A stretch of 64,000 nt of DNA from Candidatus Thorarchaeota archaeon (GTDB lineage Archaea > Asgardarchaeota > Thorarchaeia > Thorarchaeales > Thorarchaeaceae). Under the pieces are notes generated by a model. The model had not been told where the DNA came from. It saw nothing but the letters and a program-made list of their open reading frames with translations, and did not search any database. Location of the stretch: positions 64,001 through 128,000 of the forward strand of contig JBHLRP010000001.1 of assembly GCA_048882485.1 (NCBI GenBank), read 5' to 3'. A program made the translations under genes and the position numbers. Shown piece after piece: positions 8,066-23,005 of the stretch; positions within the stretch are counted from its first letter, which is position 1, and each line of letters opens with the position of its first letter.

Positions 8066-8200
8066 ATGGTGCTATGAGCTAGATAATTGGCAACCCGATA
8101 AAGCATGGAATTGATAGCTAAGCCTTCTCGCTAGGTTTTTATGGAGCATGATTCCACGACCGTGACCTGAGAGCAGCTTCGTCTCTTGGAGAGAGTCCAC

Positions 8201-10141
8201 ATGACACTGAAGCCAAAGCTAGTGACGGAACTCGCTGAGGTCTATGAAGACCGCGTGATCACAGAGAAGCATGAGCTCGTAATCCATGGCATGGATGTTG
8301 GTTCTTTGCCCAAACAAGTGGGCTGGTTGATGAACGTCAAGCCTGACGCGATTGTGCAACCCACAACCCCTGAAGAGATTAAGTACCTGTACGAGTTTGC
8401 AAACAAGTACAAGGTGCCTCTTGTGCCCCGGGGCGCCGGAACCTCAGGCTATGGTGGTGCTATTCCTCGTAAGGGTGGCATCATTGTCGATATGCGCATC
8501 ATGAATAAGATCGTGGAAATTGACGAGGAGAATATGACCGTCACCGTTGAACCCGGACTCTCTTGGGCGAACCTGCAATTCGAGCTAAACCGCAAGAACT
8601 TCGATTTGCGCTGCTATCCCTCCTCTGGACTCTCAGCAACCATCGGTGGATGGGTTGCACAGGGCGGCGATGGAATTGGCTCTCTCAAATATGGAAACAT
8701 CAACAAGAACGTTGTCGCTTTTGAGGTAGTCTTGCCTAATGGCAAGGTCGTCAAGAGCAAGGACTGTGACCTGTTCTGCGACACCGAGGGCATACTCGGA
8801 ATAATCACAAAGGTCACCCTGAAGATTAAGCCTCTCACACCGATTAAGGTAATTGTGTCAAGTTTCCCTGAGAATTATCTGATGGTCCATGCCATTGAGA
8901 AGATACTCGAAGATGGCCCTCTTCCATTCACGATTAAGTTTGAAGAGTCCAAATACACTGACTTGAAGAAGAAGATCTGGGACAGTGAAGAGAGGTTCCC
9001 ATTCCCTGTTCATCACGGCAGCATTATGGTTGCATACGATGGAGATGAAGAGGAGATTGCAGAAGGCTTCAGAGTTGTTGAAGAAGTCACGGAGATGTAC
9101 AAGGGAACTGTCTACGATGAGCATGTCGCTGCTCACGAGTGGCATGACCGCTTCTATCCAATGCGAGTCAAGAAGGCTGGTCCCACCCTCGTCGTTGGCC
9201 AAGCATTTGCTCCCCTCGAGAACCTCACAGCAATACTGGATGATTGGCAATTTGAACAGGGATCTGCGCAAGCTGGCATTGACGGCTATGTTAACTCACC
9301 AAATGCCGTCACTATGATGGGCTATTTCCTCGAAGATGAGCGCCGTAGGTTCTTCATGTTATCATGGGCTCAGAGCTTTGTTGTTTTCAAGATTGCACAA
9401 AGGCACGGCGGCCACGCACACTCAACGGGAATCTGGTTTGCTAACCAAGCTAGTCAATACTTTGGAAAACAGCGATTGGCAAAGATTCGTGCAGCCAAGC
9501 TCAAGTACGACAAAAAGGAGATATCAAACCCTGGGAAAGTGTTCGCCTACTGGCTACCCCTCATTCTCAAGTTTGGTAAGTATTTCCTATGGATATTCTA
9601 TGACCTATTCAGGAATGGATTTGGCAGAATCGCTCCAATACTTCTAAAGTGGCTCCAGAACCTCCCACCACTCAAGTGGATGCTGCGGTGGGGCCGAGCG
9701 CATAGTCCCTGGCCAGTGCAATATGGATTAGGATGTTGCATGGTCGATGGTGCAGCTGGAATCGCGTCACGATGGGACTTTGAACGATTCGGGATGCTCC
9801 CGCTCTTTGGGCCGAGACAGTGTGATGTGCTATGGATATCTGGGTCTCTAACAAAGAAGATGGCTCCGCGACTGCGAAGAGTCTATGAGATGATGCCAGA
9901 CCCCAAGTTCGTCATCGCCTTCGGACAGTGTGCAGCCAGTGGGGGAGTCTTTTGGGACGGATACTCCTTGCAGGTACCACCTGAGTCTGTAGTCCCTGTC
10001 GACGTTTACCTGCCCGGCTGTCCTCCGAAGCCATCTGACTTCATCAGGGCTCATCTGATACTTCAGAACAAGATTCGTGCAGGCACGACACACTGGCAGC
10101 TGAAGTATGAGAACCAGGACGCAATGGGGATGATCCAATGA
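8201..10141 (+). CDS. nuoB: Fusion: FAD-binding oxidoreductase (GlcD/D-lactate dehydrogenase fold) + complex I subunit NuoB
   Basis: N-part PRGAGTSGYGGA, YPSSGLSATIGGWVAQGGDGIGSLKYG, NPGK; C-part GLGCC, DFERFG, PRQCDVL, VYEMMPDPKFVIAFGQC, VPVDVYLPGCPP; ATG 8201 with GGAGAG SD. Confidence 0.93.
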   Translation: MTLKPKLVTELAEVYEDRVITEKHELVIHGMDVGSLPKQVGWLMNVKPDAIVQPTTPEEIKYLYEFANKYKVPLVPRGAGTSGYGGAIPRKGGIIVDMRIMNKIVEIDEENMTVTVEPGLSWANLQFELNRKNFDLRCYPSSGLSATIGGWVAQGGDGIGSLKYGNINKNVVAFEVVLPNGKVVKSKDCDLFCDTEGILGIITKVTLKIKPLTPIKVIVSSFPENYLMVHAIEKILEDGPLPFTIKFEESKYTDLKKKIWDSEERFPFPVHHGSIMVAYDGDEEEIAEGFRVVEEVTEMYKGTVYDEHVAAHEWHDRFYPMRVKKAGPTLVVGQAFAPLENLTAILDDWQFEQGSAQAGIDGYVNSPNAVTMMGYFLEDERRRFFMLSWAQSFVVFKIAQRHGGHAHSTGIWFANQASQYFGKQRLAKIRAAKLKYDKKEISNPGKVFAYWLPLILKFGKYFLWIFYDLFRNGFGRIAPILLKWLQNLPPLKWMLRWGRAHSPWPVQYGLGCCMVDGAAGIASRWDFERFGMLPLFGPRQCDVLWISGSLTKKMAPRLRRVYEMMPDPKFVIAFGQCAASGGVFWDGYSLQVPPESVVPVDVYLPGCPPKPSDFIRAHLILQNKIRAGTTHWQLKYENQDAMGMIQ

Positions 10142-10671
10142 AATTGCGTGAAGACAGTGACCAGTACTGCATGCTGCTGATTGGCACAATTATTCTGAGT
10201 GCTTATGTCTTCGACCTCCTGCTAGCTTCCATTGCAGATACTGCAATGGCGCTGCACTTCCCATTCATGGCTGGCGGTCCGCTGATAATGGTGTTCTTTC
10301 TCGTTGGATACTTCAGGCCGAAGCGAGGCAGGATAAAGGTCAACATGCTCTCGATGGCAATTGTCATTGGAGTTCTCTACACAATCTACGCCTTGGTCTA
10401 CTTTGGCAGTGACATCATCTATGCATCCTGGGGAATGGGCGGCGCAATCCTTCTCGCAGGTGGCTTCTCAATGCTGGATCCAATGGAGGTAAGCGTGACT
10501 CCAGGAATTATGGAAGTCAGCGACTACAAATACAAGCCGCTACCAGAGCCTGAGCCCGTGGGAGAAGAAGCCAGCGAAGGTGAAGCTGAGTCAGAAGCGG
10601 CACCTGAACCAGAATCTAGTGACGCAGCTGAGGAATCAACTGAATCACCCGAGGAAGCTCCAACTGAATAG
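10138..10671 (+). CDS. Hypothetical 4-TM membrane protein with acidic tail
   Basis: ATGA overlap with the upstream gene; four hydrophobic segments; Glu/Pro-rich C-terminus. Confidence 0.75.
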   Translation: MKLREDSDQYCMLLIGTIILSAYVFDLLLASIADTAMALHFPFMAGGPLIMVFFLVGYFRPKRGRIKVNMLSMAIVIGVLYTIYALVYFGSDIIYASWGMGGAILLAGGFSMLDPMEVSVTPGIMEVSDYKYKPLPEPEPVGEEASEGEAESEAAPEPESSDAAEESTESPEEAPTE

Positions 10672-10760: not shown

Positions 10761-11120
10761 TCATTCACGAAGCCAAGCAAACGCAGCAAAGGCTAGAAGC
10801 AGACCAAAGGCAACCCATGCAAAGAGGAGAATACCTGCTAGGTCCGTGTACTGAGTTATATCCAAATAGGCATGTACGCCACCGAAGATACCGGAAGCCA
10901 TCGTGGCACCTATTCGTCCATTGCGTGTTGCTGCATATGCAATACTAAGAGTCGCTACTACGAAGAACAGCCCACTCAAGAAGATGAAGTATTGGAAGTT
11001 GAGATCTATCGGTGCCACAGTCAAGATGATCCAGAAGTATGCTCCAATGAATCCCATTCCGATTAGAAGCGCGAGGTAATAGAAGAATGTACCCTCTTCT
11101 TTGTATGACAATTGTATCAC
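10761..11120 (-). CDS. Small hypothetical 4-TM membrane protein
   Basis: Strongly hydrophobic 119-aa ORF; AGGT SD-like site and TATA-like element upstream. Confidence 0.7.
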   Translation of the reverse strand: MIQLSYKEEGTFFYYLALLIGMGFIGAYFWIILTVAPIDLNFQYFIFLSGLFFVVATLSIAYAATRNGRIGATMASGIFGGVHAYLDITQYTDLAGILLFAWVAFGLLLAFAAFAWLRE

Positions 11121-11454
11121 CTGTACCTTGTCGGTAAACTGTTTCCATCTGGAATATGTGCTCTATTTAAGCCCTTTGAGGGAAACTGGTCGAAGCCTTT
11201 TTATCATGCTACTTTGTACGCCGACCTCCGCAGCACAAGGTAGTCCACACCCTAAGGCAACCAGCCTTAATGGTTTTGGACATTATCTTGGCTGTCGTGT
11301 ACACGATTGGACCTGGAATACGTCACCTAAGAAGGGTTGGAGCTTGACTGCTATGGACAAAGGATTCCGGAAGAATGTGTTTGGAATGGTTCCATTCATT
11401 CTAGGTGGCTCGAAGGTTTTTCATTCTAGAACGGACCTAGGAGGGTCTTGAGGA

Positions 11455-11913
11455 TTGCAGACAGATAGGCTGTTTCTCCAATTCATCCCAGTCTTAGTGT
11501 GGGCCATTCTTGTAATTGTCCTAATTGTGATCATGCTGTTGGCATCATGGGTTCTGCGGCCCCATATACTGCAGAACTCTGAGAAGACATCTACATATGA
11601 ATGTGGAGAGGAGCCAATAGGGCCAGCAAGAATGTCATTTCCCTATAGTTACATCATCTACACAGTTCTCTTCGTCATCATAGATGTAATGGGCGCATTT
11701 CTCTGGCTGCTTTCTGTATCCCCGCTACGGTTGAACCCAGTAGTCGCTTGGCAGACATTCATCTTTGTAGTGATTATCATGGGTGCAATTGGATACGCAA
11801 TGAGATATCTGCCTCAAGCCTCACTTGATGGTAAGGAAACTCTGGAGGCATATCGCGCTGCGAAAGCGAGACATCTTGAGAAACCACGCCACCCAGGGAG
11901 GGAGCATAACTAA
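11455..11913 (+). CDS. nuoA: Complex I subunit A
   Basis: EKTSTYECGEEPIG motif, three TMs. Confidence 0.93.
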   Translation: MQTDRLFLQFIPVLVWAILVIVLIVIMLLASWVLRPHILQNSEKTSTYECGEEPIGPARMSFPYSYIIYTVLFVIIDVMGAFLWLLSVSPLRLNPVVAWQTFIFVVIIMGAIGYAMRYLPQASLDGKETLEAYRAAKARHLEKPRHPGREHN

Positions 11914-12587
11914 TGCAAGGATTTGAGTCCACTTTCGAGTCAGTGGAGTTTCTGTTGATTGCAGGAATTGTAATTGTTCTAGCTTACCTCGCTCTGGAAC
12001 ATAGAGAGATCGTCTATGCTGCATTCTTCTTTGGATTCATGGCGTCGTTTGTAGCAGGATTCTTCCTTTTGTTGGAAGCGCCTTTTGTTGCTGGTATGCA
12101 GATTGCGGTGTATACTGGAGGCATAAGTGCGTTGATCATATTTGGTGTGCTCCTACTACCAAGAGCACAAGACTCCACACTCGAGTCAATTGAGTCGCCC
12201 CGTGCAAAGAAGGTTGGCATCCTTGTATCTAGCTCCATAATGTTTCTCTCTGCAATTCTAGCTCTGACCTTCCCATGGAGTGAAACAATTCCAGAAGGCA
12301 CAATAGACGCTTCAAACAACGTTGCTCTTCTCGCTGAGTGGCTCTGGGGTGATCACGGAATCTACGTTCAGATCATTGCACTCATCATTGTGACATCTCT
12401 CGTGGGTGTCATCGTACTCATGAAGATGGATAAGGCAGAACTGATGAAGGGTATAGTTGCTGAGTTTGGCATCGAAGCAGCACCAGAACCTAAAGAGCCT
12501 GAGCCTGAGCCAGAAGAGTCTCCGGAGCCTGAGGAGACCCCGGAAGTAACTCCTGAGGCGGAAGTCAGTGAGGAGGTGACTGACTAA
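11913..12587 (+). CDS. nuoJ: Complex I subunit J with acidic tail
   Basis: LEAPFVAGMQIAVYTGGISALIIF motif. Confidence 0.92.
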   Translation: MQGFESTFESVEFLLIAGIVIVLAYLALEHREIVYAAFFFGFMASFVAGFFLLLEAPFVAGMQIAVYTGGISALIIFGVLLLPRAQDSTLESIESPRAKKVGILVSSSIMFLSAILALTFPWSETIPEGTIDASNNVALLAEWLWGDHGIYVQIIALIIVTSLVGVIVLMKMDKAELMKGIVAEFGIEAAPEPKEPEPEPEESPEPEETPEVTPEAEVSEEVTD

Positions 12588-12907
12588 TGGTCCCGCTTTC
12601 TTGGTATCTTGCTGTTGCATTCATCCTAATTGGCCTAGGAGCCTATGGAATGATGGTGAAGAGGAACCTCATTAGAATCCTGATCGGGGCGGAAATTATG
12701 GGGAACGGAGTTAGCATCGCTATAGCTGCTTTTGCGGTCTACAGCCCTACCTTTACGCTGACAGGACAGGCTCTCATCATTCTCATGATATCAGTTGCCG
12801 CAGCTCACACTGCTTTAGCCTTGGTTTTGATGCTTGCTTACAATAGGCGGCATGGAACAGTGGACCTGGGAAGACCAATCTCACAGGAGGATAAGATCGA
12901 TGTCTGA
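12587..12907 (+). CDS. nuoK: Complex I subunit K
   Basis: KRNLIRILIGAEIM; ISVAAAH (the canonical second Glu is His here). Confidence 0.92.
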   Translation: MVPLSWYLAVAFILIGLGAYGMMVKRNLIRILIGAEIMGNGVSIAIAAFAVYSPTFTLTGQALIILMISVAAAHTALALVLMLAYNRRHGTVDLGRPISQEDKIDV

Positions 12908-13421
12908 AGGTGCTCCGATGTCTGGTGCCACATTTGGTAGGCAGATTGTCAGCAAGTTTCCTGGTGTTGAATGTACTCCAAAGGAAGATGGTATCCTTGA
13001 GTGCATGGTACCAGCGGACAAAATCAGAGATGTTGTTGGGATGATTGACGAGCAGATTGATGATGCATTTCCAGAGAGCGTTTTTGGAGTTGACCTTCAA
13101 GAAGACAAGTATGAGGTCATCTACATTTTCTGGTCGCGAGCCAATAGAACTCAATATCACCTTCGAGTTTCACTTGAGGGTACCAATCCCGAGGTGGATA
13201 CAATCTGTGATATTTTCCCAGGCATGGAGTGGCATGAGAGAGAAACCTGGGAGATGTTTGGAATCACCTTCAAAGGACATCCTGACCTCCGGCTTTTGTT
13301 GCTTCCTGAGGAGCTCGAAGGGAAATATCCTCTGAGGAAGAGCTTCGTGACAGATAGGGCACGGCTCGAGGAGGCCGACAGAACGCCTCCAAAGACGCCA
13401 GAAGGAGGTGCGACTGAATGA
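12900..13421 (+). CDS. nuoC: Complex I subunit C
   Basis: WHERETWEMFGITFKGHPDLRLLLLP..YPLRKSF; start moved to ATG 12900 (GGAGG SD). Confidence 0.93.
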   Translation: MSEGAPMSGATFGRQIVSKFPGVECTPKEDGILECMVPADKIRDVVGMIDEQIDDAFPESVFGVDLQEDKYEVIYIFWSRANRTQYHLRVSLEGTNPEVDTICDIFPGMEWHERETWEMFGITFKGHPDLRLLLLPEELEGKYPLRKSFVTDRARLEEADRTPPKTPEGGATE

Positions 13422-14554
13422 GCCCTGACATTCTAGACGAAACAACCGAGGTCTGGTTCGGACCTCAGCACGTATCCGCACACGGATGGGCAGCTAGGCT
13501 TACACTCGTTGGAGACTTTGTAGTAGAATGCGATCCTAACGCAGGATATTTCCATCGATCAGCTGAGAAGTGCTTGGAGTTCAGGAACTTTAGGCAAGGG
13601 TCTCTCATCATGGAACGGCTCTGCATGCTTGAGGCATTTCTGGCTGAGTATCCTTACATCATGGCGGTTGAGAAGATTGCAGGACTAGAGGTACCTGAAC
13701 GAGCTAAGGTCATGCGAACCATCATGATGGAGGCTAGCCGAATACATTCATTGCAGTTCTGGTGGGGTCAGTTCTCAGCTGAACTTGGGCTTTTTGCGAT
13801 GTTGCTATGGCCCTGGGTCGACCGAGAGTTCTTCCTCGATACTTTCGAGGAACTCAGCGGGTCCCGTCATGCTGTCTCCTATAGTACACCCGGCGGTGTG
13901 AAGTACGACTTCACAGACAAGGTGCTCAAGAAGCTCGACATTGCCTTGGAGCGGTTTGAAGACCGAATGCCTACAATGCGTGATATGCTCATGGGCAGTC
14001 CCACTTTCCGAGCAAGGACAGAGAGCATTGGTCAATACACCTTGAAGCAAGGTCTGAAGTTTGGTCTAAGCGGTCCGCCAATCAAGGCATGTGGTCTGCC
14101 AATGGATCTACGAAAAGATGCCCCTGACCCGAATCTTGCCTACGATATGATTGATTGGGAAGTTCCAATTACTGAGAGCGAAGAACACCCCGGAGAGAGT
14201 GATGCCTACGACAGAATGGTCCAGCGATTCAAGGAGATGGAGACCTCAGTAGAGATAATTCGGAAATTGCTACCTTTAGTTCCTGACGGCCCCATTGTTG
14301 ATCCTAAGGCTCGAGCCAAGGCCAATAGGCTTCCAGAGGGTGAAGCCTACGGCCGTGTTGAGGGGACAAGAGGAATCTCAACCCTCTGGCTTAAGACTAC
14401 TGAAAAGGCGCAGACTCCTTACAGGGCCAAGATACGTGGTCCCTGTTTCAATTCTTACTACTCACTGAAGCATTTGGTTCCGGGTGCGAAGTTTGCAGAC
14501 TTCATTGTCGTTTTCGGATCGCTTGATCCGTATCCAGGGTGGTGGGATCGCTGA
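13418..14554 (+). CDS. nuoD: Complex I subunit D (no NiFe-binding CxxC pairs)
   Basis: FGPQHVSAHG, GYFHRSAEK, ERLCML, PGGV, EGTRG, PYRAKIRGP, SLDPYPGWWDR. Confidence 0.92.
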   Translation: MSPDILDETTEVWFGPQHVSAHGWAARLTLVGDFVVECDPNAGYFHRSAEKCLEFRNFRQGSLIMERLCMLEAFLAEYPYIMAVEKIAGLEVPERAKVMRTIMMEASRIHSLQFWWGQFSAELGLFAMLLWPWVDREFFLDTFEELSGSRHAVSYSTPGGVKYDFTDKVLKKLDIALERFEDRMPTMRDMLMGSPTFRARTESIGQYTLKQGLKFGLSGPPIKACGLPMDLRKDAPDPNLAYDMIDWEVPITESEEHPGESDAYDRMVQRFKEMETSVEIIRKLLPLVPDGPIVDPKARAKANRLPEGEAYGRVEGTRGISTLWLKTTEKAQTPYRAKIRGPCFNSYYSLKHLVPGAKFADFIVVFGSLDPYPGWWDR

Positions 14555-14565
14555 TGGGAGGTGTC

Positions 14566-15699
14566 ATGTTGCAGATAGATTTCTTTGCATGGCTTCAAGG
14601 AATCCCTCAATGGCTATATGGAGTCATTCAGTGGTTGTTCGACATTGTCAGTGGAATCTTCTACTGGATATGGGGCATCTTCACATGGATTTGGGCAGCT
14701 CTATTCGATGTAGCCAACTTCTTCTTCCTAATTCGAGCAGTGCTATTCCCAGGTCTTGTCTTCATTCTCATGACAATCATCTTTGCTGTTTGGTATACGC
14801 GCAAGCTCTGGGGCAGAATTCAAGACAGGCGTGGTCCATTTCACTTGGGTAAGTACGGAGGACTTCAACTCTTCGCTGATGCGATTAAGCTCGTAGGAAA
14901 GGAAACCATAATCCCTGACAAGGCGAAACGCTGGATGTATCGGTTCCTTCCATCACTATTGCTGTTGGTTGTCTTAATCCCATTTGCGTTCATCCCATGG
15001 GATCCAATTTGGTACATTGCTGATTTATCGGTCGGTCTAGTGCTAGTCTTCGCATTTCTAACTGCAGTGCCCATAGTAGCATTGCTATCTGGTTGGATAA
15101 GTGGGTCCAAGTATACACTCATAGGTGGTTTCAGAGCAGCTAATAATCAGTTTGCTTGTGAGATTCCATTAATCATCTCATCAGTAGGCCCGGCGATGCT
15201 GGCTGGTTCTTTGAGTGTGATGGGAATCGCAATGGCTCAAACAAATGTCTGGTTCATATTCCTTCTACCAATCAATGTAGCCACATTCCTTGTGGCCGCG
15301 ATAGGCTCTGTGGGAACCTTTCCATTTGATGCTCCTGTGGCTGACTCGGAGGTTATCTTTGGCTGGAGGACAGAGTTCAGTGGCATCTACTTCACACTAA
15401 CCTATTTCGCAGAGTTTGCTGAGCAGGCTCTCTATTCAGCACTCATTGTTGCACTGTTCCTTGGTGGGTTCCATGGACCGGCTTTCTTGCCAGGAAGCGT
15501 GATATTCATCATCAAGTTCCTGATAGTATTCTTCTTCTTCGTCGTTGTGACGTCATCGTTCCATCGGCTAAGACAAGACCAGATTGTGTACTTCTGCTGG
15601 AAGTATCTACTTCCATTGTCAATACTGAATGTTGTGCTTGTGATGTTGGGAATAGCCAACATCCCCTTGCTACAAGCAGTTCTTGGAATAGGAGGGTAG
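14566..15699 (+). CDS. nuoH: Complex I subunit H
   Basis: RKLWGRIQDRRGP, GGLQLFADAIKLVGKE, PFD..DSE..GWRTEFSG; GGAGGTG SD before ATG 14566. Confidence 0.93.
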   Translation: MLQIDFFAWLQGIPQWLYGVIQWLFDIVSGIFYWIWGIFTWIWAALFDVANFFFLIRAVLFPGLVFILMTIIFAVWYTRKLWGRIQDRRGPFHLGKYGGLQLFADAIKLVGKETIIPDKAKRWMYRFLPSLLLLVVLIPFAFIPWDPIWYIADLSVGLVLVFAFLTAVPIVALLSGWISGSKYTLIGGFRAANNQFACEIPLIISSVGPAMLAGSLSVMGIAMAQTNVWFIFLLPINVATFLVAAIGSVGTFPFDAPVADSEVIFGWRTEFSGIYFTLTYFAEFAEQALYSALIVALFLGGFHGPAFLPGSVIFIIKFLIVFFFFVVVTSSFHRLRQDQIVYFCWKYLLPLSILNVVLVMLGIANIPLLQAVLGIGG

Positions 15700-15705
15700 A
15701 GCAAG

Positions 15706-16137
15706 ATGGGATTCTTCAGAAATCTAGGTGACATATTCCAGATATTGAGACACGTATTCCGTCAGGTGATGTCCCGTCCATTCACGTACTTCTATCCATT
15801 TGAGGACAGGGAATATCCAGAGAGGACTCGTGGAAGGCATATCTTTGTGCGTGAGAATTGCACATCATGCATGCAGTGTGTGCGGGCTTGTCCTGTTGTC
15901 GCTATTAGCATCGATAAGAGTGACAAGCATTTCGAGAAAGACGCCGCTCTATACTTTGACTATACGCGGTGCATATTCTGTGGACTATGCGTTCAAGCCT
16001 GCAGGTTTGATGCTTTGTTTCACACTCAGGTTGTTGATATCAGCGAAGGAGAGAGGGAGGACTTGCTCTATGGTCCTGACAAGATAGAAACTCTCGATCG
16101 AGACCCGCTTGAGTGGCGTGGAAGGAGGTTCCGTTGA
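15706..16137 (+). CDS. nuoI: Complex I subunit I (2x[4Fe-4S])
   Basis: CTSCMQCVRACP and CIFCGLCVQACR. Confidence 0.93.
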   Translation: MGFFRNLGDIFQILRHVFRQVMSRPFTYFYPFEDREYPERTRGRHIFVRENCTSCMQCVRACPVVAISIDKSDKHFEKDAALYFDYTRCIFCGLCVQACRFDALFHTQVVDISEGEREDLLYGPDKIETLDRDPLEWRGRRFR

Positions 16138-17654
16138 TGCAACTAGCCTTCGAGTTCCCATTCATGACCTTGTCCTTGCTAGTCCTCTTCATTGGAGGGC
16201 TCTTGATCTACCTCCTTCGCGGTCGACTCGAAAAGACATCAGGGAAAATTGCTGTTGGCTTCTCGGCGGTAAGCGCATTGCTAATGGTGCCTCCCTTCTA
16301 TCGTATCATGGTTGAAGGTGGTCGGGCTGCTGAGAAGGTCAGCTGGTCAGTTGTACTTGGAGAGTTTGGTCTCTACCTAGATGAGATTGCTTTTCCAATT
16401 ACATTCGCAGTTGTTGTCCTAGGATTCCTTTCGGTTATCTATGCTGTAGGCTATACTGAGCATACTGAGAATAAGCCCACTTTCTTTGCAAACACATTGT
16501 TCTTCATCATGGGCATGCAAGGCGTGACGCTTGCAACCAATTTGCTGGAATTCTTCATCTTTTGGGAGATCATGCTTGTCCCATCGTACTTCCTAATTCT
16601 GTTTTGGGGCTTGCCTGAAACCCGAAAACGAACTGCCATCAAGTTTTGGCTCTATACACAGGCTGGAGCGGTCTGTATTTTGATCGCCCTAGGTCTCTTG
16701 TACTTCTTCACAGGCACCTTTGAGCTCTACACAATTCTGGCAATGGCTCCTGCCATCTGGTCAGACCTCCGACTGCTGCAGATTATTTTCATCTTGTTCG
16801 CTGCTGGCTTCCTAGTCAAAATGGCGGCCTTCCCTCTGCATTGGTGGTTACCTCCAGTCCACGCCGAAGCTCCGACTCCTATATCGGTTCTGCTATCCGG
16901 AGCCATGATTGAAACCGGTGCTTATGCTCTCGTCCGTTTCGGAATCGTTACGCTTGGACCTGCAGCTGCCTCGCTCTCATTCTGGATTGGAGTACTTGGT
17001 GTTGCCACAATGTTCTACGGAGGAGCTATGGCGCTTGTACAGAAAGACATCAAGAGACTGCTGGCTTACTCATCAGTTTCCCAGATGGGCTATGTCCTCT
17101 TTGCCCTGGGCATGATTACCACATTCGGTGTAGCTGGCGGTCTGTTTCATCTCATCAATCATGCCTTCAGCAAGGGTGTCTTATTTATGACTGCTGGAGC
17201 CGTGATTCATCAGACTCATCTGAGGGATGTTGACAAGATGGGCGGTCTCTCAAACAAGATGCCCATCACTGCATTCGCTGCAGCTATCGGTGCAATGAGC
17301 ATTGCAGGGAGTCCTCCCCTCTCTGGATTCGCTAGTGAATGGATGATGTTTCTAGGGGGCTTTGATGCTGTTCTGATGGGACCAGGAGGTCTCGCCCGAC
17401 CTGAGTTCTTTTTCCTATCCATTTTGGCTGTATCAAGCTCCATTGTGAGTGCGGGCTACATGCTTCGGTATCTTTGGAAAGTCTTCCTTGGACCAAATCC
17501 AACAGAACTGGAGGATGTGAAAGAGAGTTCCAACTGGATGACTGCCCCAATGGTTGTCCTTGGTTTTCTCATAGTGTTGTTTGGAGTATTCCCAGGTTTG
17601 GCACTGGATGTCATTTTACCTGGTGTACAAGAAATAGCTACTCTGCTTCCATGA
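16137..17654 (+). CDS. nuoM: Extra NuoM-like antiporter subunit (M1)
   Basis: FFIFWEIMLVP, AIKFWLYT, VKMAAFPLHWWLP.HAEAPTP, KRLLAYSS, GFASEW; ATG 16137 with GGAGGT SD. Confidence 0.85.
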   Translation: MQLAFEFPFMTLSLLVLFIGGLLIYLLRGRLEKTSGKIAVGFSAVSALLMVPPFYRIMVEGGRAAEKVSWSVVLGEFGLYLDEIAFPITFAVVVLGFLSVIYAVGYTEHTENKPTFFANTLFFIMGMQGVTLATNLLEFFIFWEIMLVPSYFLILFWGLPETRKRTAIKFWLYTQAGAVCILIALGLLYFFTGTFELYTILAMAPAIWSDLRLLQIIFILFAAGFLVKMAAFPLHWWLPPVHAEAPTPISVLLSGAMIETGAYALVRFGIVTLGPAAASLSFWIGVLGVATMFYGGAMALVQKDIKRLLAYSSVSQMGYVLFALGMITTFGVAGGLFHLINHAFSKGVLFMTAGAVIHQTHLRDVDKMGGLSNKMPITAFAAAIGAMSIAGSPPLSGFASEWMMFLGGFDAVLMGPGGLARPEFFFLSILAVSSSIVSAGYMLRYLWKVFLGPNPTELEDVKESSNWMTAPMVVLGFLIVLFGVFPGLALDVILPGVQEIATLLP

Positions 17655-17665
17655 GGTGATCGACA

Positions 17666-19984
17666 ATGTTGCTTGGACTACCCTATTGGCTTATCCTCGT
17701 CATTCCGCTGCTTGGCTCTCTCCTCGTTCCACTTGTTGGAAAATTCAGTGAGCGCGCGAGAGACTGGACCCCTGCAATCCTCATGGGAGCCTCTATGGTT
17801 CTATGCTGGTCGCTTCTACCTGAGATTGGAAACCCGACCCAGACCACGCACTGGATGTGGATTGAGGTCTTAGGACTCGAGTTCGAGGTTCTCCTGGACC
17901 CGCTCTCAGTTGTTATGGGGGTTCTAGCCAGCACTCTGTGTTTTCTCATCTATGTCTACTCTACAGAGTACATGGCTCATGAGGGCGATCGTGACCGCTT
18001 CTTCTTCCTCATGCTGGCATTCGGCGGTGGTATGCTGACGCTAGTGCTCAGCAACAACCTTCTGATTGCATTTATCGGATGGGAGATCATGGGATTTTGC
18101 TCCTATGGTTTGATAGGATTCTGGAATGACAAGAGGAACCCTCCCGAAACCGACCCATCAGACATTCACTCCACAAACCCGCTTCTTCAATTCAAGACCG
18201 AGGGACAGTACAACACCCACTGCGGGACCAAGGCATTCGTCGTCACGAGAATCGGTGATGCATTCATGTTGGGCGGTATCCTGATTCTGTTCGTCTTCAC
18301 TGGCACCTTTTCCTTCACTGAGATGGCGGCTGATGCCCAATCATGGTGGAGCACTATGGCAGGTATCGGGATGCTTGTGCCGACATTCCTACTCATCTTC
18401 ATGGGTGCAATCGGCAAGTCCGGACAGGCTCCACTGCAGGTCTGGTTGCCGGAAGCAATGGCTGGCCCGACAAGCGTTTCGGCTCTCATTCACGCTGCGA
18501 CGATGGTCAAGGCGGGTGTCTATATCACCGCTCGATTCCTGGTCACAATGGTGTCAGCAGCCGGTGGTGAGGGCAATGGTGGTGAACATATCGCTGGACT
18601 TCAGGCAATTGGTTTTGAAGCAGCGTTGACCTTTTTCATCTTTGTAGCAATCATCGGCGGTATTACTGCTCTCATGACAGCGACCATGGGAATGGTCTCA
18701 AACGAGCTCAAGCAGATACTGGCATTCTCAACACTCAGCCAGCTTGGATACATGATGCTCTCACTAGGTGTGGGCGGCGTCCTTCAGGCTGAGGGACTTC
18801 ACTTCACTGATGCATACTTGAGCGGTGTGATGCATGTGATATCGCATGGTGCATTCAAGGCCCTTCTATTCCTTGCATCAGGAGGTGTTATACACGCCGT
18901 CCATACCAAGTTCATCACCAAGATGGGCGGTCTGAAGCAATACATGCGGAAGACCTTCATCGTGATGTGGATTGGTGTGCTTGCCCTCGCAGGTATCCCA
19001 CCGTTCTCAGGGTTCTGGTCAAAGGACTCTATCATCGAGTATGCCTATGAATTGGCGGTTGAATGGCCAAATCCGATAGGTTGGATGCTATTCTTCTTTG
19101 CTGTCTTAGCCGCAGCCTGCACGATATTCTATAGCATTCGACTCATGGGCATCACTTTCTATGGACCTTCCAAGGAGAGTCATGACCATCACGAGTCACA
19201 CAGCTCACACGAGAATGAGGATTCAGAAGAGCCTGAAGACCTACATTATGATGGCTTAGAGGAAAATGAAGAATCTCATGATAGTGACTCAGAGAAGCAA
19301 GAAGAACCACATGACAACCACTCCGAAGAGCAGCATCACTCAACTCCTCAAGATCCGGGTCCGGCAATGATGGTGCCATTATATCTACTAGCGGCCTTTA
19401 CTGTCATTGCATTCCTTGTCTTCCCGTTTGTTCAGAACATTGTACTTGAAGAGAGTCACTCTTGGGCTGAGAACTTAGCGCACATGATAGAGGTCAAGCT
19501 GACCTACCCAGGAATTGTGCCTTTCATGATAACGCTAGGCGCGCTCGCCCTCGGCGGAGTTCCTGGATACATGATGTACATCAGGGGTGCTGACTCTCCC
19601 AATACTTGGGTGCCGGAGAAGGGCTTCCGAAGGAGATTTCACAATTTCCTAAAGCATCGCTGGTACATCAATGAATTCTACTATTGGATATTGAACAAAT
19701 TCCTGAGTGCGGCAGAGCGTTATCGAGTGAATGTTGACAACAAAATCATTGATGGCATCGACTTCAAGTCTGCTGACGCAGGGAAAGGTCTAGCAACGAA
19801 GCTGAAATGGTTTGATGATAATGTGGTTGATGGCTTTGCTGAGGGGGTTTCTACTTACAGTGTTGCAGCTTCAGAGTCCAGTCAGTCTGCACAGACTGGT
19901 CGAGTCAATGACTATGTGGGAGTGATAATGTTCGGGATTGGAATTCTGGTCATAATCGTTCTATTATCTCTGGGGGTGCTCTAG
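17666..19984 (+). CDS. nuoL: Complex I subunit L with extended lateral helix and His/acid-rich loop
   Basis: GWEIMG, RIGD, GKSGQAPLQVWLPEAMAGPT, HAATMV, GFWSKD, QTGRVNDY plus final TM. Confidence 0.93.
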   Translation: MLLGLPYWLILVIPLLGSLLVPLVGKFSERARDWTPAILMGASMVLCWSLLPEIGNPTQTTHWMWIEVLGLEFEVLLDPLSVVMGVLASTLCFLIYVYSTEYMAHEGDRDRFFFLMLAFGGGMLTLVLSNNLLIAFIGWEIMGFCSYGLIGFWNDKRNPPETDPSDIHSTNPLLQFKTEGQYNTHCGTKAFVVTRIGDAFMLGGILILFVFTGTFSFTEMAADAQSWWSTMAGIGMLVPTFLLIFMGAIGKSGQAPLQVWLPEAMAGPTSVSALIHAATMVKAGVYITARFLVTMVSAAGGEGNGGEHIAGLQAIGFEAALTFFIFVAIIGGITALMTATMGMVSNELKQILAFSTLSQLGYMMLSLGVGGVLQAEGLHFTDAYLSGVMHVISHGAFKALLFLASGGVIHAVHTKFITKMGGLKQYMRKTFIVMWIGVLALAGIPPFSGFWSKDSIIEYAYELAVEWPNPIGWMLFFFAVLAAACTIFYSIRLMGITFYGPSKESHDHHESHSSHENEDSEEPEDLHYDGLEENEESHDSDSEKQEEPHDNHSEEQHHSTPQDPGPAMMVPLYLLAAFTVIAFLVFPFVQNIVLEESHSWAENLAHMIEVKLTYPGIVPFMITLGALALGGVPGYMMYIRGADSPNTWVPEKGFRRRFHNFLKHRWYINEFYYWILNKFLSAAERYRVNVDNKIIDGIDFKSADAGKGLATKLKWFDDNVVDGFAEGVSTYSVAASESSQSAQTGRVNDYVGVIMFGIGILVIIVLLSLGVL

Positions 19985-19985
19985 A

Positions 19986-21530
19986 GTGCAGCTCGGATTC
20001 ATCCAAGACCTCATCGCAATGTTGCCAATGGACAATATACTACCACTGATGCTATTTGCTCCATTAGTCGCAGCATTCTTTGCCTACATACTCGGTGCAA
20101 GAGGGGGTAGGGCTCTCACGCTCATTGTCACATTCGTTGAACTCCTGCTTTCGCTTGTCCTCATTGTAGCAATTCTGCCGAATCCAGGAGCTATGTGGTT
20201 TGAATGGTCGTTCACACTTAGCGATGTGCAATTCGGGAGCTGGAATGCTCTCCTCCAGATATACCTAGGTGTTGACGGAATATCCGTTGCCATGGTGTTT
20301 CTTTCAAACCTCGTGGTCTTCATTGCAGCACTCAGTTCAAACCATATCAAGAAATCACAGCATCTGTACTACATGTTCTTCCTGATGCTCCAGACAGGTC
20401 TGCTTGGCGTATTCATGTCATTTGATCTGATCAGCTTCTTCATCTTCTGGGAATTGGTCTTGATACCGATGTTCTTCATAATAGGAAGATGGGGCGAAGA
20501 GGGATGTGAACACGCAGCTGTCAAGTTCTTCATCTACACACATCTCGGCTCAGCTGTGATGTTGGTCTCATTCATGGCACTGTTCTTCCTAGGACCCGGT
20601 ACATTCAACATGATTGCGATCAAGGCTGCACCAATTGCAATCAACATTCAGATTGGCTTTGCACTGGCTGTCTTTCTGGGGGCTGGCGTCAAGCTTCCTG
20701 TCTTTCCATTGCACAACTGGCTTCCGTGGGCCCACGTCAAGGCGCCAACTCCTGGTTCAGTGATACTCGCTGGAATACTCTTGAAGATGGGTGGATACGG
20801 GTTCATTAGACTGGGTCTTTGGATGGTTCCGCAAGGATTTGCTCGACTCAGTATCCCATTCGCTGTCCTCGCGGTCTTCACATGCATCTATGCAGCCTTT
20901 GTGGCAATGGGTCAGACTGACGTTAAGTCAATGGTAGCCTATACATCAATCAACCACATGGCATGGGTGTTGCTTGGAGTTGCCATCGGAGGATTTGCCA
21001 TCGGAGGTGGAGCCACAGAGGGCCAACTCTTCTCAGCCAGCCTTGCAGTTCAAGGCGCAGTATTCATGATGGTATCCCATGGGATGATATCCTCTGTCAT
21101 GTTCATTCTTGCCGGCCAGCTGAAGTACTCGGCTGGAAGCAGACTGATTCCTGATGTCATGGGTCTTATGACGAAAGCTCCTAGAATGTCCGCTGTCTTT
21201 ATCCTCGCGGTCTTTGCAGCCTTTGGGTTGCCCGGAATGAGCGGATTCATTGCAGAGGCCCTTGTACTGTTTGGGTCAGTGAACATCTACATATGGTCTG
21301 GCTTCATTGCATTTGGAATCTTTGTCACGGTAGGATATCTCCTTTGGACCCTGAACCGAATTGTGTTTAGTGATCCAGACCCTGAGAAGGAGGTCACTGA
21401 AGCACCATGGAGTGATCTCATTGCACCAATCTTGATGATGATACCAGTAATCATCCTCGGGCTTTGGCCAGATCTTGTGCTCAATCTAGTGATACCGATA
21501 GTCAACGATATGATAGGGGTGATTCCATAA
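19986..21530 (+). CDS. nuoM: Complex I subunit M (canonical, M2)
   Basis: FFIFWELVLIPM, VKLPVFPLHNWLPWAH, LLKMGGYG, GFIAE. Confidence 0.92.
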   Translation: MQLGFIQDLIAMLPMDNILPLMLFAPLVAAFFAYILGARGGRALTLIVTFVELLLSLVLIVAILPNPGAMWFEWSFTLSDVQFGSWNALLQIYLGVDGISVAMVFLSNLVVFIAALSSNHIKKSQHLYYMFFLMLQTGLLGVFMSFDLISFFIFWELVLIPMFFIIGRWGEEGCEHAAVKFFIYTHLGSAVMLVSFMALFFLGPGTFNMIAIKAAPIAINIQIGFALAVFLGAGVKLPVFPLHNWLPWAHVKAPTPGSVILAGILLKMGGYGFIRLGLWMVPQGFARLSIPFAVLAVFTCIYAAFVAMGQTDVKSMVAYTSINHMAWVLLGVAIGGFAIGGGATEGQLFSASLAVQGAVFMMVSHGMISSVMFILAGQLKYSAGSRLIPDVMGLMTKAPRMSAVFILAVFAAFGLPGMSGFIAEALVLFGSVNIYIWSGFIAFGIFVTVGYLLWTLNRIVFSDPDPEKEVTEAPWSDLIAPILMMIPVIILGLWPDLVLNLVIPIVNDMIGVIP

Positions 21531-23005
21531 TGCTACAGGTTTCCACAATAATCGATGCTATCAGCGACATCTTGAGTCCCTTCTTTGCACTAGTCCCAGC
21601 GGATTGGCTAGTATCATTACCAGCTTTGACGCTCATCCTATTCGGAATCTTGGCACTCATTGTAGGAATGAGAAGAAGTCCTTTGGCAGTCAGTTTCATT
21701 GGCATTGCCCTTGCAGGCTTTGAGATGATTCTCATTGACCCGGGTTCTTCCTTTGGAGGACTATTTGTAAGAGACATGTTTGGTGATTTCTTCATCTGGA
21801 TCATTCTGGTTGTCGCATTCATAATACTGCTTTCGTCGACGACATACGGTGGAAATAAGGGTACATACAACTTTCTCCTCATGATGTCATTTGCTGGCGC
21901 AATTTGGGTCGTTATGGCAACCGATCTTGTGGCGCTGTTTTTGGCATGGGAACTCATGAGTACGCCGACATATGTGCTTGTTGCGCTAGGGCCCCACAGA
22001 GGAGCTATTGATGGAGCTACCAAGTACTTCGTCATGGGACTCCTATCGTCAACTCTCATCCTATTTGGAATCGCGATTGTTTATGGTACAACAGGTGCCA
22101 CAAGCTTTGCCGCTGTTGCTGCATTTGTTAGTGTCGTCTGGAGCGCCGCTTCTCCGTCTGCCTACGCAATGCTTCTGTCCATGGTGCTGTTCCTGATCGG
22201 TTTTGGATTCAAGGTCGGTGTGTTCCCAGGATGGATGTGGGTCCCCGACGCATATGCAACTGCTGACGGAAGCGTCACAGGATATCTGGCCGGTGCAACC
22301 AAGAAGACAGGTGTAAGTGCCCTCCTTCGGATACTACTCGTTGCATTTGTTGCAGCACAAATGGAATGGATGCCTGTCGTAGTCACTATCTCGATTCTTT
22401 CCATGATCATTGGGAATATTCTTGCACTCGCTCAGCGCAACATCATGAGAATGTTAGCCTTCTCATCCATCATGATGATGGGTCTACTCTTCGTGGGGAT
22501 TGCAGCCGGAACGGCCTTTGGAGCAGCAGCTGCGATGTTTACCGCGTTTGCCCATGCACTCATCAAGACGGGCGCGTTTATCCTGGTTTGGGCATTGGCT
22601 GTTTCCATTGGAAAAGAGGTCACATATGATGATTTGAAAGGACTCAGTACTCGTGCTCCGATTGTTGCTCTATTGATGGCAATAATGGTCTTTGCTCTAG
22701 CAGGCGCACCATTCACAGCAGGATTCTGGTTCAAGTGGTTTCTATTGCCTGGAGCTGCAGTCGATGCTGGGCTTTGGTGGTTGGCGATAATTGCTGTGCT
22801 GAACTCAGTATTTGCACTTGGCTATTACTTGAGAATCCTAAGGTATTGCTACTTCATGGAACCAACAGAAGGTACAACATTACGCATACCGACGATTCCT
22901 CTTGTTGCGGTGCTACTTGCAGTTGTGGGTACAATAATGATTGGCGTCTTTCCGGGTCTAATCCTGGACTATGCATCGTTGGCAGCTGGAGTCCTCGTCC
23001 CATAG
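21530..23005 (+). CDS. nuoN: Complex I subunit N
   Basis: AWELMS, KYF, GFKVG..WVPDAY, GFWFKW; TAATG overlap and GGGGTGA SD. Confidence 0.92.
   Translation: MLQVSTIIDAISDILSPFFALVPADWLVSLPALTLILFGILALIVGMRRSPLAVSFIGIALAGFEMILIDPGSSFGGLFVRDMFGDFFIWIILVVAFIILLSSTTYGGNKGTYNFLLMMSFAGAIWVVMATDLVALFLAWELMSTPTYVLVALGPHRGAIDGATKYFVMGLLSSTLILFGIAIVYGTTGATSFAAVAAFVSVVWSAASPSAYAMLLSMVLFLIGFGFKVGVFPGWMWVPDAYATADGSVTGYLAGATKKTGVSALLRILLVAFVAAQMEWMPVVVTISILSMIIGNILALAQRNIMRMLAFSSIMMMGLLFVGIAAGTAFGAAAAMFTAFAHALIKTGAFILVWALAVSIGKEVTYDDLKGLSTRAPIVALLMAIMVFALAGAPFTAGFWFKWFLLPGAAVDAGLWWLAIIAVLNSVFALGYYLRILRYCYFMEPTEGTTLRIPTIPLVAVLLAVVGTIMIGVFPGLILDYASLAAGVLVP

Follow-up and report, generated by a model that had tools for sequence, protein, structure and literature searches.

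A probable four-pump complex I-like enzyme with a three-unit NuoL lateral helix in a Thorarchaeota genome

Complex I of the 2M type, in which a second NuoM is combined with a 26-residue insertion in NuoL, was described by Chadwick, Hemp, Fischer and Orphan (2018, ISME J 12:2668), here followed through the papers citing that work. Such enzymes were assigned to a "clade 2" in heterotrophic marine Thaumarchaea (PMC7300363) and a "clade 3" in Nitrospira (PMC6606698), an extra M was reported for the Angelarchaeales (PMC9038741), and in Chloroflexi the genes are arranged in the order nuoL-M1-M2-N (PMC7117926). The 2M enzymes have been proposed to reach a higher ion/electron ratio or to drive reverse electron flow from quinol to ferredoxin (PMC6606698, PMC9040806). 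An even larger arm of five pumps, including MrpD-like subunits, is found in Complex_I_3 of Ca. Manganitrophaceae (PMC9040806). Since the Thaumarchaeal and Angelarchaeales forms are published, 2M complex I is already known in archaea. No mention of it in Thorarchaeia or other Asgard archaea was found in the literature, in which the original 2M paper was represented by its citing papers, and a recent survey of Asgard complex I discusses only shortened arms. The subject of this work is a complex I-like operon of a Candidatus Thorarchaeota archaeon, located in a stretch of 64,000 nucleotides (positions 64,001 to 128,000 of contig JBHLRP010000001.1, assembly GCA_048882485.1), referred to below as the window.

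The operon probably encodes a four-pump complex I-like enzyme with a three-unit NuoL lateral helix, a member of one archaeal M-L-M-N family, "pump" being used here for an antiporter-like subunit of the membrane arm.

Antiporter-like genes and the lateral helix of NuoL

Four consecutive genes with the PF00361 domain occupy positions 16113/16137-23005 of the window (E 1e-56 to 1e-71). These genes and the relevant parts of NuoL are listed below; NuoL was also modelled as a monomer with AlphaFold 2 (AF2), local confidence being expressed as the predicted local distance difference test (pLDDT), and TM denotes a transmembrane helix.

16137-17654, plus strand: M1, M-type antiporter-like subunit (PF00361, E 1.8e-71)
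17666-19984, plus strand: nuoL, 772 residues (PF00361 and PF00662; best PDB matches are NdhF and NuoL chains)
19178-19339, plus strand: acidic, His-rich disordered loop of NuoL, residues 505-558 (from the translation; pLDDT below 50 over 505-558)
19661-19741, plus strand: lateral helix unit 1, residues 666-692, from the conserved RWY (R665, W666 and Y667 invariant or nearly so; unit register)
19742-19819, plus strand: lateral helix unit 2, the extra unit, residues 693-718 (gapped in 7/7 three-pump NuoLs of alignment A3, see below)
19820-19900, plus strand: lateral helix unit 3, residues 719-745, ending at the invariant QTG (unit register and motif position)
19904-19969, plus strand: TM16, the anchor at the lateral helix end, residues 747-768 (AF2 secondary structure)
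19986-21530, plus strand: M2, NuoM-type subunit (PF00361, key residues, archaeal M2 clade)
21530-23005, plus strand: nuoN (PF00361, TM12 Lys, N clade including E. coli NuoN)

The true start of M1 is the ATG at 16137, which overlaps the TGA of nuoI and is preceded by GGAGG, and the true start of N is the ATG at 21530, overlapping the TAA of M2. The gaps between M1 and L and between L and M2 amount to 11 nt and 1 nt, respectively. Because of the overlapping start and stop codons and the Shine-Dalgarno sites found at the operon junctions, the M1-L-M2-N junctions are translationally coupled.

An earlier note on this DNA had described two NuoM-type genes flanking nuoL, and this was borne out. Both M1 and M2 carry the NuoM signature E-K-x-x-H-E with Glu in TM12, the corresponding position of N being Lys. 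The key residues of M2 (Glu, Lys, Lys, His, His, Glu) are those of E. coli NuoM; M1 has Glu in TM5, Lys in TM7, Glu in place of Lys in TM8 and Glu in TM12. The two proteins are only 30% identical.

Within the lateral helix, VDNKI (residues 688-692), the last five residues of unit 1, opens the first docking motif, VDNKIIDG (residues 690-697, nt 19733), which straddles the start of unit 2. The second docking motif, FDDNVVDG (residues 716-723, nt 19811), straddles the start of unit 3 and lies exactly 78 nt, i.e. 26 residues, from the first one. In phmmer searches against PDB chains the first motif was aligned to VDYNVVDG of cyanobacterial NdhF (6hum_F) and the second one to VDDKAVDG of Mycobacterium NuoL (8e9g_L), and both are therefore copies of one canonical motif. 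The claim of an "exact 26-aa duplication" held for the spacing of the two motif copies and did not hold for the sequence: the two 26-residue units share only 3/26 residues (manual count), their nucleotide identity is 27/78 against 19.6 +/- 3.7 in shuffles, and Tandem Repeats Finder detected no DNA-level repeat across them. Judging from the sequence, the unit duplication in the Thorarchaeia NuoL is old, and it is the motif and the spacing that recur. In the AF2 monomer (pLDDT 77.5) a continuous helix covers residues 654-725 and TM16 covers 747-768.

To express helix length, the distance from the conserved RWY at the helix start to the invariant QTG before the last TM was used. It amounts to 79 residues for the NuoL of the window, to 50 for that of E. 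coli and to 52-55 for the three-pump archaeal relatives. The relatives come from a sample of about 140 loci (60 Asgard neighbourhoods and 80 loci from named genomes), in which L with a number marks a retrieved locus, f an Asgard family and G a genome. NuoL C-termini of seven four-pump and seven three-pump clusters were aligned with MAFFT (alignment A3). On the four-pump side stood the Thorarchaeia family f1, the Asgard families f18, f2 and f5, one Bathyarchaeia and two Nitrososphaeria, and on the three-pump side L099, two ammonia-oxidising archaea (AOA), L161, two Asgard Mbh-like complexes and E. coli. The two sides differ by one block of about 26 residues, present in 7/7 four-pump NuoLs and gapped in 7/7 three-pump ones. 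The repeated motif at unit 3 falls on P564-L565-N566 of E. coli NuoL, where the amphipathic helix is kinked and comes closest to NuoM (PMC3274701), and replacement of the seven residues that follow P564 in the E. coli protein leaves the complex fragile (PMC3274701). The proposal of a 2M-type complex I with a lengthened NuoL was thus upheld: two M-type subunits occur together with about 26 net additional residues in NuoL, as measured against its archaeal three-pump, Asgard and E. coli counterparts, and the helix is short in those relatives that have one M less, namely L099, AOA and L161. Neither outcome named in the earlier note as refuting the proposal was seen.

The total length of NuoL was rejected as a measure of the insertion. 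It ranges from 676 to 844 residues among four-pump clusters with constant helix length, and it is uninformative because of the disordered acidic, His-rich loop (residues 505-558) and other inserts. The 54-residue loop at 19178-19339 contributes a large share of the additional length of NuoL but lies outside the lateral helix; it sits between TM helices and varies in length among the Thorarchaeia NuoLs, and a second insert of about 30 residues (residues ~155-185) follows TM5.

The same arrangement was found well beyond the window. In all Thorarchaeia clusters of this type (21/21) the genes are ordered M1-L-M2-N, and RWY and QTG are 79-80 residues apart. Gene order and helix length are shared by the Asgard families f2, f5 and f18, by the Bathyarchaeia loci L113, L115 and L129 and by the non-AOA Nitrososphaeria loci L143, L156 and L159; in all, M1-L-M2-N with a three-unit helix is also present in six Asgard families. 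Nitrososphaeria with four antiporter genes have helices of 80-85 residues, and the genomes of L143 and L156 hold four such genes.

Ancestry of the two M-type subunits

In phylogenetic trees the M2 proteins of the archaeal four-pump clusters, Asgard and TACK (Thaumarchaeota, Aigarchaeota, Crenarchaeota, Korarchaeota) together, form one clade, with Shimodaira-Hasegawa-like (SH-like) support of 99 in FastTree and an SH-like approximate likelihood ratio test (SH-aLRT) value of 98 in IQ-TREE. This clade is sister, with support of 100, to the bacterial-type NuoM of E. coli, f22 and Planctomycetota. M1 falls into another lineage, together with the M that is the only one in AOA, in L099 and in the Asgard Mbh-like three-pump complexes. 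According to these trees M1 is the resident archaeal M of the older lineage and M2 is the addition relative to the three-pump archaeal M-L-N arm, a reversal of the earlier note, in which M1 had been taken for the extra subunit. M1 as a distal add-on beyond L was likewise rejected, the M1 type being the only M in the three-pump AOA and in L099. The protein Atlas search with M1 returned generic antiporter clusters only. Many representatives of 1250-1330 residues (P0006-P0016 and others) match M1 in two to four stretches, and appear to be fused multi-antiporter (L+M-like) polypeptides.

The TM8 position of the resident M is occupied by Glu in the Thorarchaeia group, by Gly in TACK including AOA and by Ser in L099. 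The change of TM8 Lys to Glu was considered as a mark of an "extra" subunit and rejected, because the resident M of TACK (Gly) and of L099 (Ser) also has no lysine there.

The trees of L, M1 and N each contain a Thorarchaeia group (f1, f18, f2 and f5, with L099 nearby) and a TACK group that includes f12 and f16. Each of these groups has three-pump members nested inside it, suggestive of a secondary loss of M2 together with one helix unit, but by these trees alone the change may have run in either direction.

The earlier note had also proposed an independent archaeal origin of the arrangement. That the Thorarchaeia lineage invented it independently of other archaea and bacteria would fit the difference between M-L-M-N and the bacterial order nuoL-M1-M2-N (PMC7117926), and the separate subclades formed by the M1, L, M2 and N proteins of the Thorarchaeia group. 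It is nevertheless highly improbable: Bathyarchaeia and Nitrososphaeria have the same gene order and helix length, all archaeal M2 proteins fall into the single clade supported by both tree programs, and the insertion lies at the same alignment position in all four-pump sequences of A3. Since M2 is monophyletic and the insertion is found at that same position, the four-pump enzymes of Thorarchaeia and TACK are considered, as far as sequence comparison goes, to be of one origin, shared through descent or transfer.

The affinity of M1 to the M subunits of Mbh/Mrp-like Asgard complexes, and its lack of the TM8 lysine, could alternatively mean that M1 or M2 shares the operon and acts outside the complex, as a stand-alone or Mrp-like subunit of a cation/proton antiporter. 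There is very little room for this explanation. No PF00361 gene beyond the four of the operon was found in the genome, which is 90.5% complete, so that a partner of the MrpA or MrpD kind is missing. M1 sits in translational coupling between nuoI and nuoL. Three-pump AOA have no M other than one of the M1 type, which must therefore be a subunit of the complex there. The gene order is, in addition, conserved across phyla. The features expected of an Mrp antiporter locus were not seen, the antiporter genes directly following nuoA-J-K-C-D-H-I (the mrpC-G families were not searched individually).

Helix units and pump number among relatives

Helix lengths in the sample are quantised: values of 26, 52-55, 78-82 and 105-107 residues correspond to one to four units of about 26.5 residues, and in all clusters each unit after the first opens with a (D/E)-x-x-(I/V)-(I/V)-D-G-like motif. 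The number of units equals the number of pumps minus one in 2, 47 and 27 clusters of the raw tally, restricted to clusters that do not touch a locus end, and in about 82 clusters after manual correction of split and edge genes. Not one of the tabulated clusters has fewer units than pumps minus one. The following three-pump relatives agree with this relation. L099 consists of A-B-CD-H-I-J-K followed by an M1-type gene, L (623 residues, helix 53) and N, and L161, with one M fewer, has a helix of 54. All ammonia oxidisers examined have helices of 54-55, and the complete chromosomes of Cenarchaeum and Nitrosopumilus contain only three antiporter-like genes each. Independent contrasts were computed on a tree built from the core of L without its helix, and 4-5 of the five contrasts in pump number agree with the change in helix units, none opposing it.

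The AOA loci L120-L139 and L146-L160, together with G206 and G207 (Nitrosopumilaceae, Nitrososphaeraceae), have only M-L-N and a helix of two units, which is not easily reconciled with the duplicated NuoM that the literature ascribes to AOA (PMC9038741).

Several observations weigh against a four-pump enzyme spanned by a matching helix. A sign test on the five contrasts is not significant (median p ~0.125), the pairs being too few. The Asgard family f22 has four units with only L, M, N and at most one orphan antiporter gene; its loci L090 and L091 (G130, G184, G139) have the order A-B-C-D-H-I-J-K-L-M-N, and their L groups with E. coli NuoL. The Asgard family f12 has four units with four pumps (helix measured in L083), and L166, L107 and L181 (Planctomycetota) have three units with three pumps. 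Concerning the window itself, the AF2 model has pLDDT below 50 over NuoL residues 721-747, in the last helix unit, and was for that reason set aside as a measure of helix length in angstroms, and M1 is devoid of the central TM8 lysine, as is the single M of AOA. Because clusters with surplus units exist, a long helix is not proof of a fourth pump.

The surplus-unit clusters (f22, f12, L166, L107, L181) would be readily understood if the three-unit helix were a lineage trait unrelated to pump number, the fourth antiporter gene being coincidental and the extra length bracing something else or nothing. This is regarded as unlikely, though less so than the two alternatives discussed above. M2 never occurs without the unit, nor the unit without M2, when L099 is compared with the Thorarchaeia group, and again when AOA and L161 are compared with the 2M clusters of Nitrososphaeria and Bathyarchaeia; no tabulated cluster falls below pumps minus one; and the motif aligned with the NuoM-contact kink recurs in the extra unit. 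What gives the four-pump reading its weight, on sequence evidence, is that M2 and one unit were gained or lost together in each of the two archaeal M-L-(M)-N groups.

Some of the clusters mentioned have further features. G139 (f22, 96% complete) carries one orphan 633-residue antiporter-like gene elsewhere in the genome. L083 (G011:C25) is the M1-L-M2-N cluster of f12, and clusters of the same type, judged by gene sizes, are present in G052, G067 and G114; an orphan antiporter-like gene of 631 residues was found in G011 and none in G052. L166 (CAZQNA010000001.1, Nitrososphaerota) contains L-N-M, B-C-D-H-I-J-K and M-L-N in one array, that is, two complex I-like membrane sets and six antiporter-like genes within 15 kb, the second L having three units. 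In f16, the locus L085:5973-14206 (G031:C151) has five consecutive antiporter-like genes after nuoK, namely M1a (split by a TAA into 149 and 347 residues), M1b, L, M2 and N, and a four-unit helix (107). Its L core is sister to a three-pump L of f16, and L085 may represent an archaeal five-pump relative of complex I.

The proposed enzyme and its comparison with described complexes

The remaining genes of the operon were identified by Pfam matches:

8186-10141, plus strand: FAD-oxidase::NuoB fusion, supplying the NuoB of the complex (FAD_binding_4, FAD-oxidase_C and Oxidored_q6)
11455-11913, plus strand: nuoA
11913-12587, plus strand: nuoJ
12587-12907, plus strand: nuoK
12834-13421, plus strand: nuoC
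13418-14554, plus strand: nuoD
14539-15699, plus strand: nuoH
15706-16137, plus strand: nuoI

The plus-strand operon thus runs from the FAD-oxidase::NuoB fusion and a small membrane open reading frame (ORF) through nuoA-J-K-C-D-H-I to M1-L-M2-N, and the order nuoA-J-K-C-D-H-I is kept in those Thorarchaeia loci whose retrieved stretch covers these genes. NuoE, NuoF and NuoG are absent among the operon genes by Pfam, the genome's only NuoF-like gene being located on a different contig. The small ORF at 10138-10671 encodes 177 residues, among them about four hydrophobic stretches of helix and a tail rich in acidic residues; it accompanies the FAD::NuoB fusion in most Thorarchaeia loci and may be an extra membrane subunit. 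For an ORF of 116 residues at 11101-11451 a counterpart was detected in a single relative, and this ORF is unlikely to be a gene.

In the proposed architecture the membrane arm would comprise N, the two M-type subunits M1 and M2, and L, in an operon that has no NADH module. The lateral helix would consist of three units of about 26.5 residues in place of two, the last two units each starting with the D-x-x-(I/V)-(I/V)-D-G kink aligned to the NuoM-contact kink of E. coli. It would pass and dock on two successive M subunits before being anchored by the last TM. A stretch of 26 residues of alpha-helix extends over about 39 angstroms, and two kinks 26 residues apart would fit docking on two successive M subunits. 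The most likely effect of the added pump would be a higher ion/electron ratio, with about 5 instead of 4 H+ per 2 e-, or a stronger driving force for reverse electron flow. The sequence data show which genes are present and that they are coupled, the net insertion, its covariation with pump number among relatives and the common ancestry of M2; the physical incorporation of the fourth subunit, the order of the subunits in the arm and their stoichiometry are inferred from them, the first of these because some lineages have more units than the pump count requires.

As to origin, M2, a NuoM-type paralogue, would have been inserted between L and N while the helix gained one unit. A possible recent instance of unit gain is seen in L142:9637-9791 (QMSB01000021.1, Thermoprotei archaeon B15_G2), where nuoL contains a perfect 78-nt tandem duplication (2.0 copies, 100%) that adds exactly one 26-residue unit, giving a helix of 105 against 79 in the near-identical metagenome copy L098. 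The duplication is either a recent gain or an assembly artefact. A broader picture can be drawn, to which we give somewhat less than even chances: the archaeal four-pump enzyme would have arisen by recruitment of M2 into an M-L-N arm together with a 78-nt unit duplication, and not by tandem nuoM duplication. The helix would then be a modular ruler in Asgard and TACK archaea, one to four units serving two to five pumps, including perhaps the first archaeal five-pump complexes (f16, possibly f12) and, in L142, a duplication caught in the act. No description of such a modular ruler for archaea was found in the literature.

With these results a four-pump complex I is predicted also for the Thorarchaeia type and several other Asgard families, which bears on energy conservation or on the supply of low-potential reductant in archaea of low-energy sediments. 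The Asgard enzyme is tied to the TACK one through shared ancestry or transfer. The interest lies mainly in the clean comparative rule and in the pair of old-paralogue M subunits flanking L, and not in the independent invention first proposed. By that rule, which has exceptions, each spanned pump goes with about 26.5 helix residues, and in none of the examined clusters is the helix too short.

The published archaeal 2M enzymes, as portrayed in the papers citing the original description, resemble the Thorarchaeia one in the lack of NuoEFG in the operon, in having a second subunit of the M type and in a lateral helix extended by about 26 residues. In the retrieved loci of non-AOA Nitrososphaeria and Bathyarchaeia the order is likewise M1-L-M2-N, the helix measures 80-85 and M2 belongs to the same clade. 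The Thorarchaeia-group subunits differ in forming a sister subclade, in the fusion of the Thorarchaeia NuoB to a flavoenzyme and in the TM8 position of M1, which is Glu in Thorarchaeia and Gly in TACK. The three-pump complex I of AOA (nuoA-B-C-D-H-I-J-K-M-L-N) has the same backbone and order, with an M1-type gene before L, N after it and no NuoEFG, but it is devoid of M2 and its helix has two units (54-55).

The bacterial 2M enzymes of Nitrospira and Chloroflexi, compared here by their published descriptions, also have four pumps, a longer NuoL and a proposed higher H+/e- ratio or reverse transport to ferredoxin. Their order is, however, L-M-M-N and they are described as the product of nuoM duplication, whereas the M genes of Thorarchaeia flank L, are 30% identical and come from different old M lineages. 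The tandem nuoM downstream of nuoL, by which bacterial 2M clusters are recognised, is not present in the Thorarchaeia cluster. With Complex_I_3 the Thorarchaeia enzyme shares the 26-residue helix insertion accompanying an added pump (PMC9040806), and differs from it in having four pumps in the window instead of five. What is new relative to these systems, as read from sequence, is a phylum-level host for a known 2M kind, in which the two M subunits are old paralogues flanking L.

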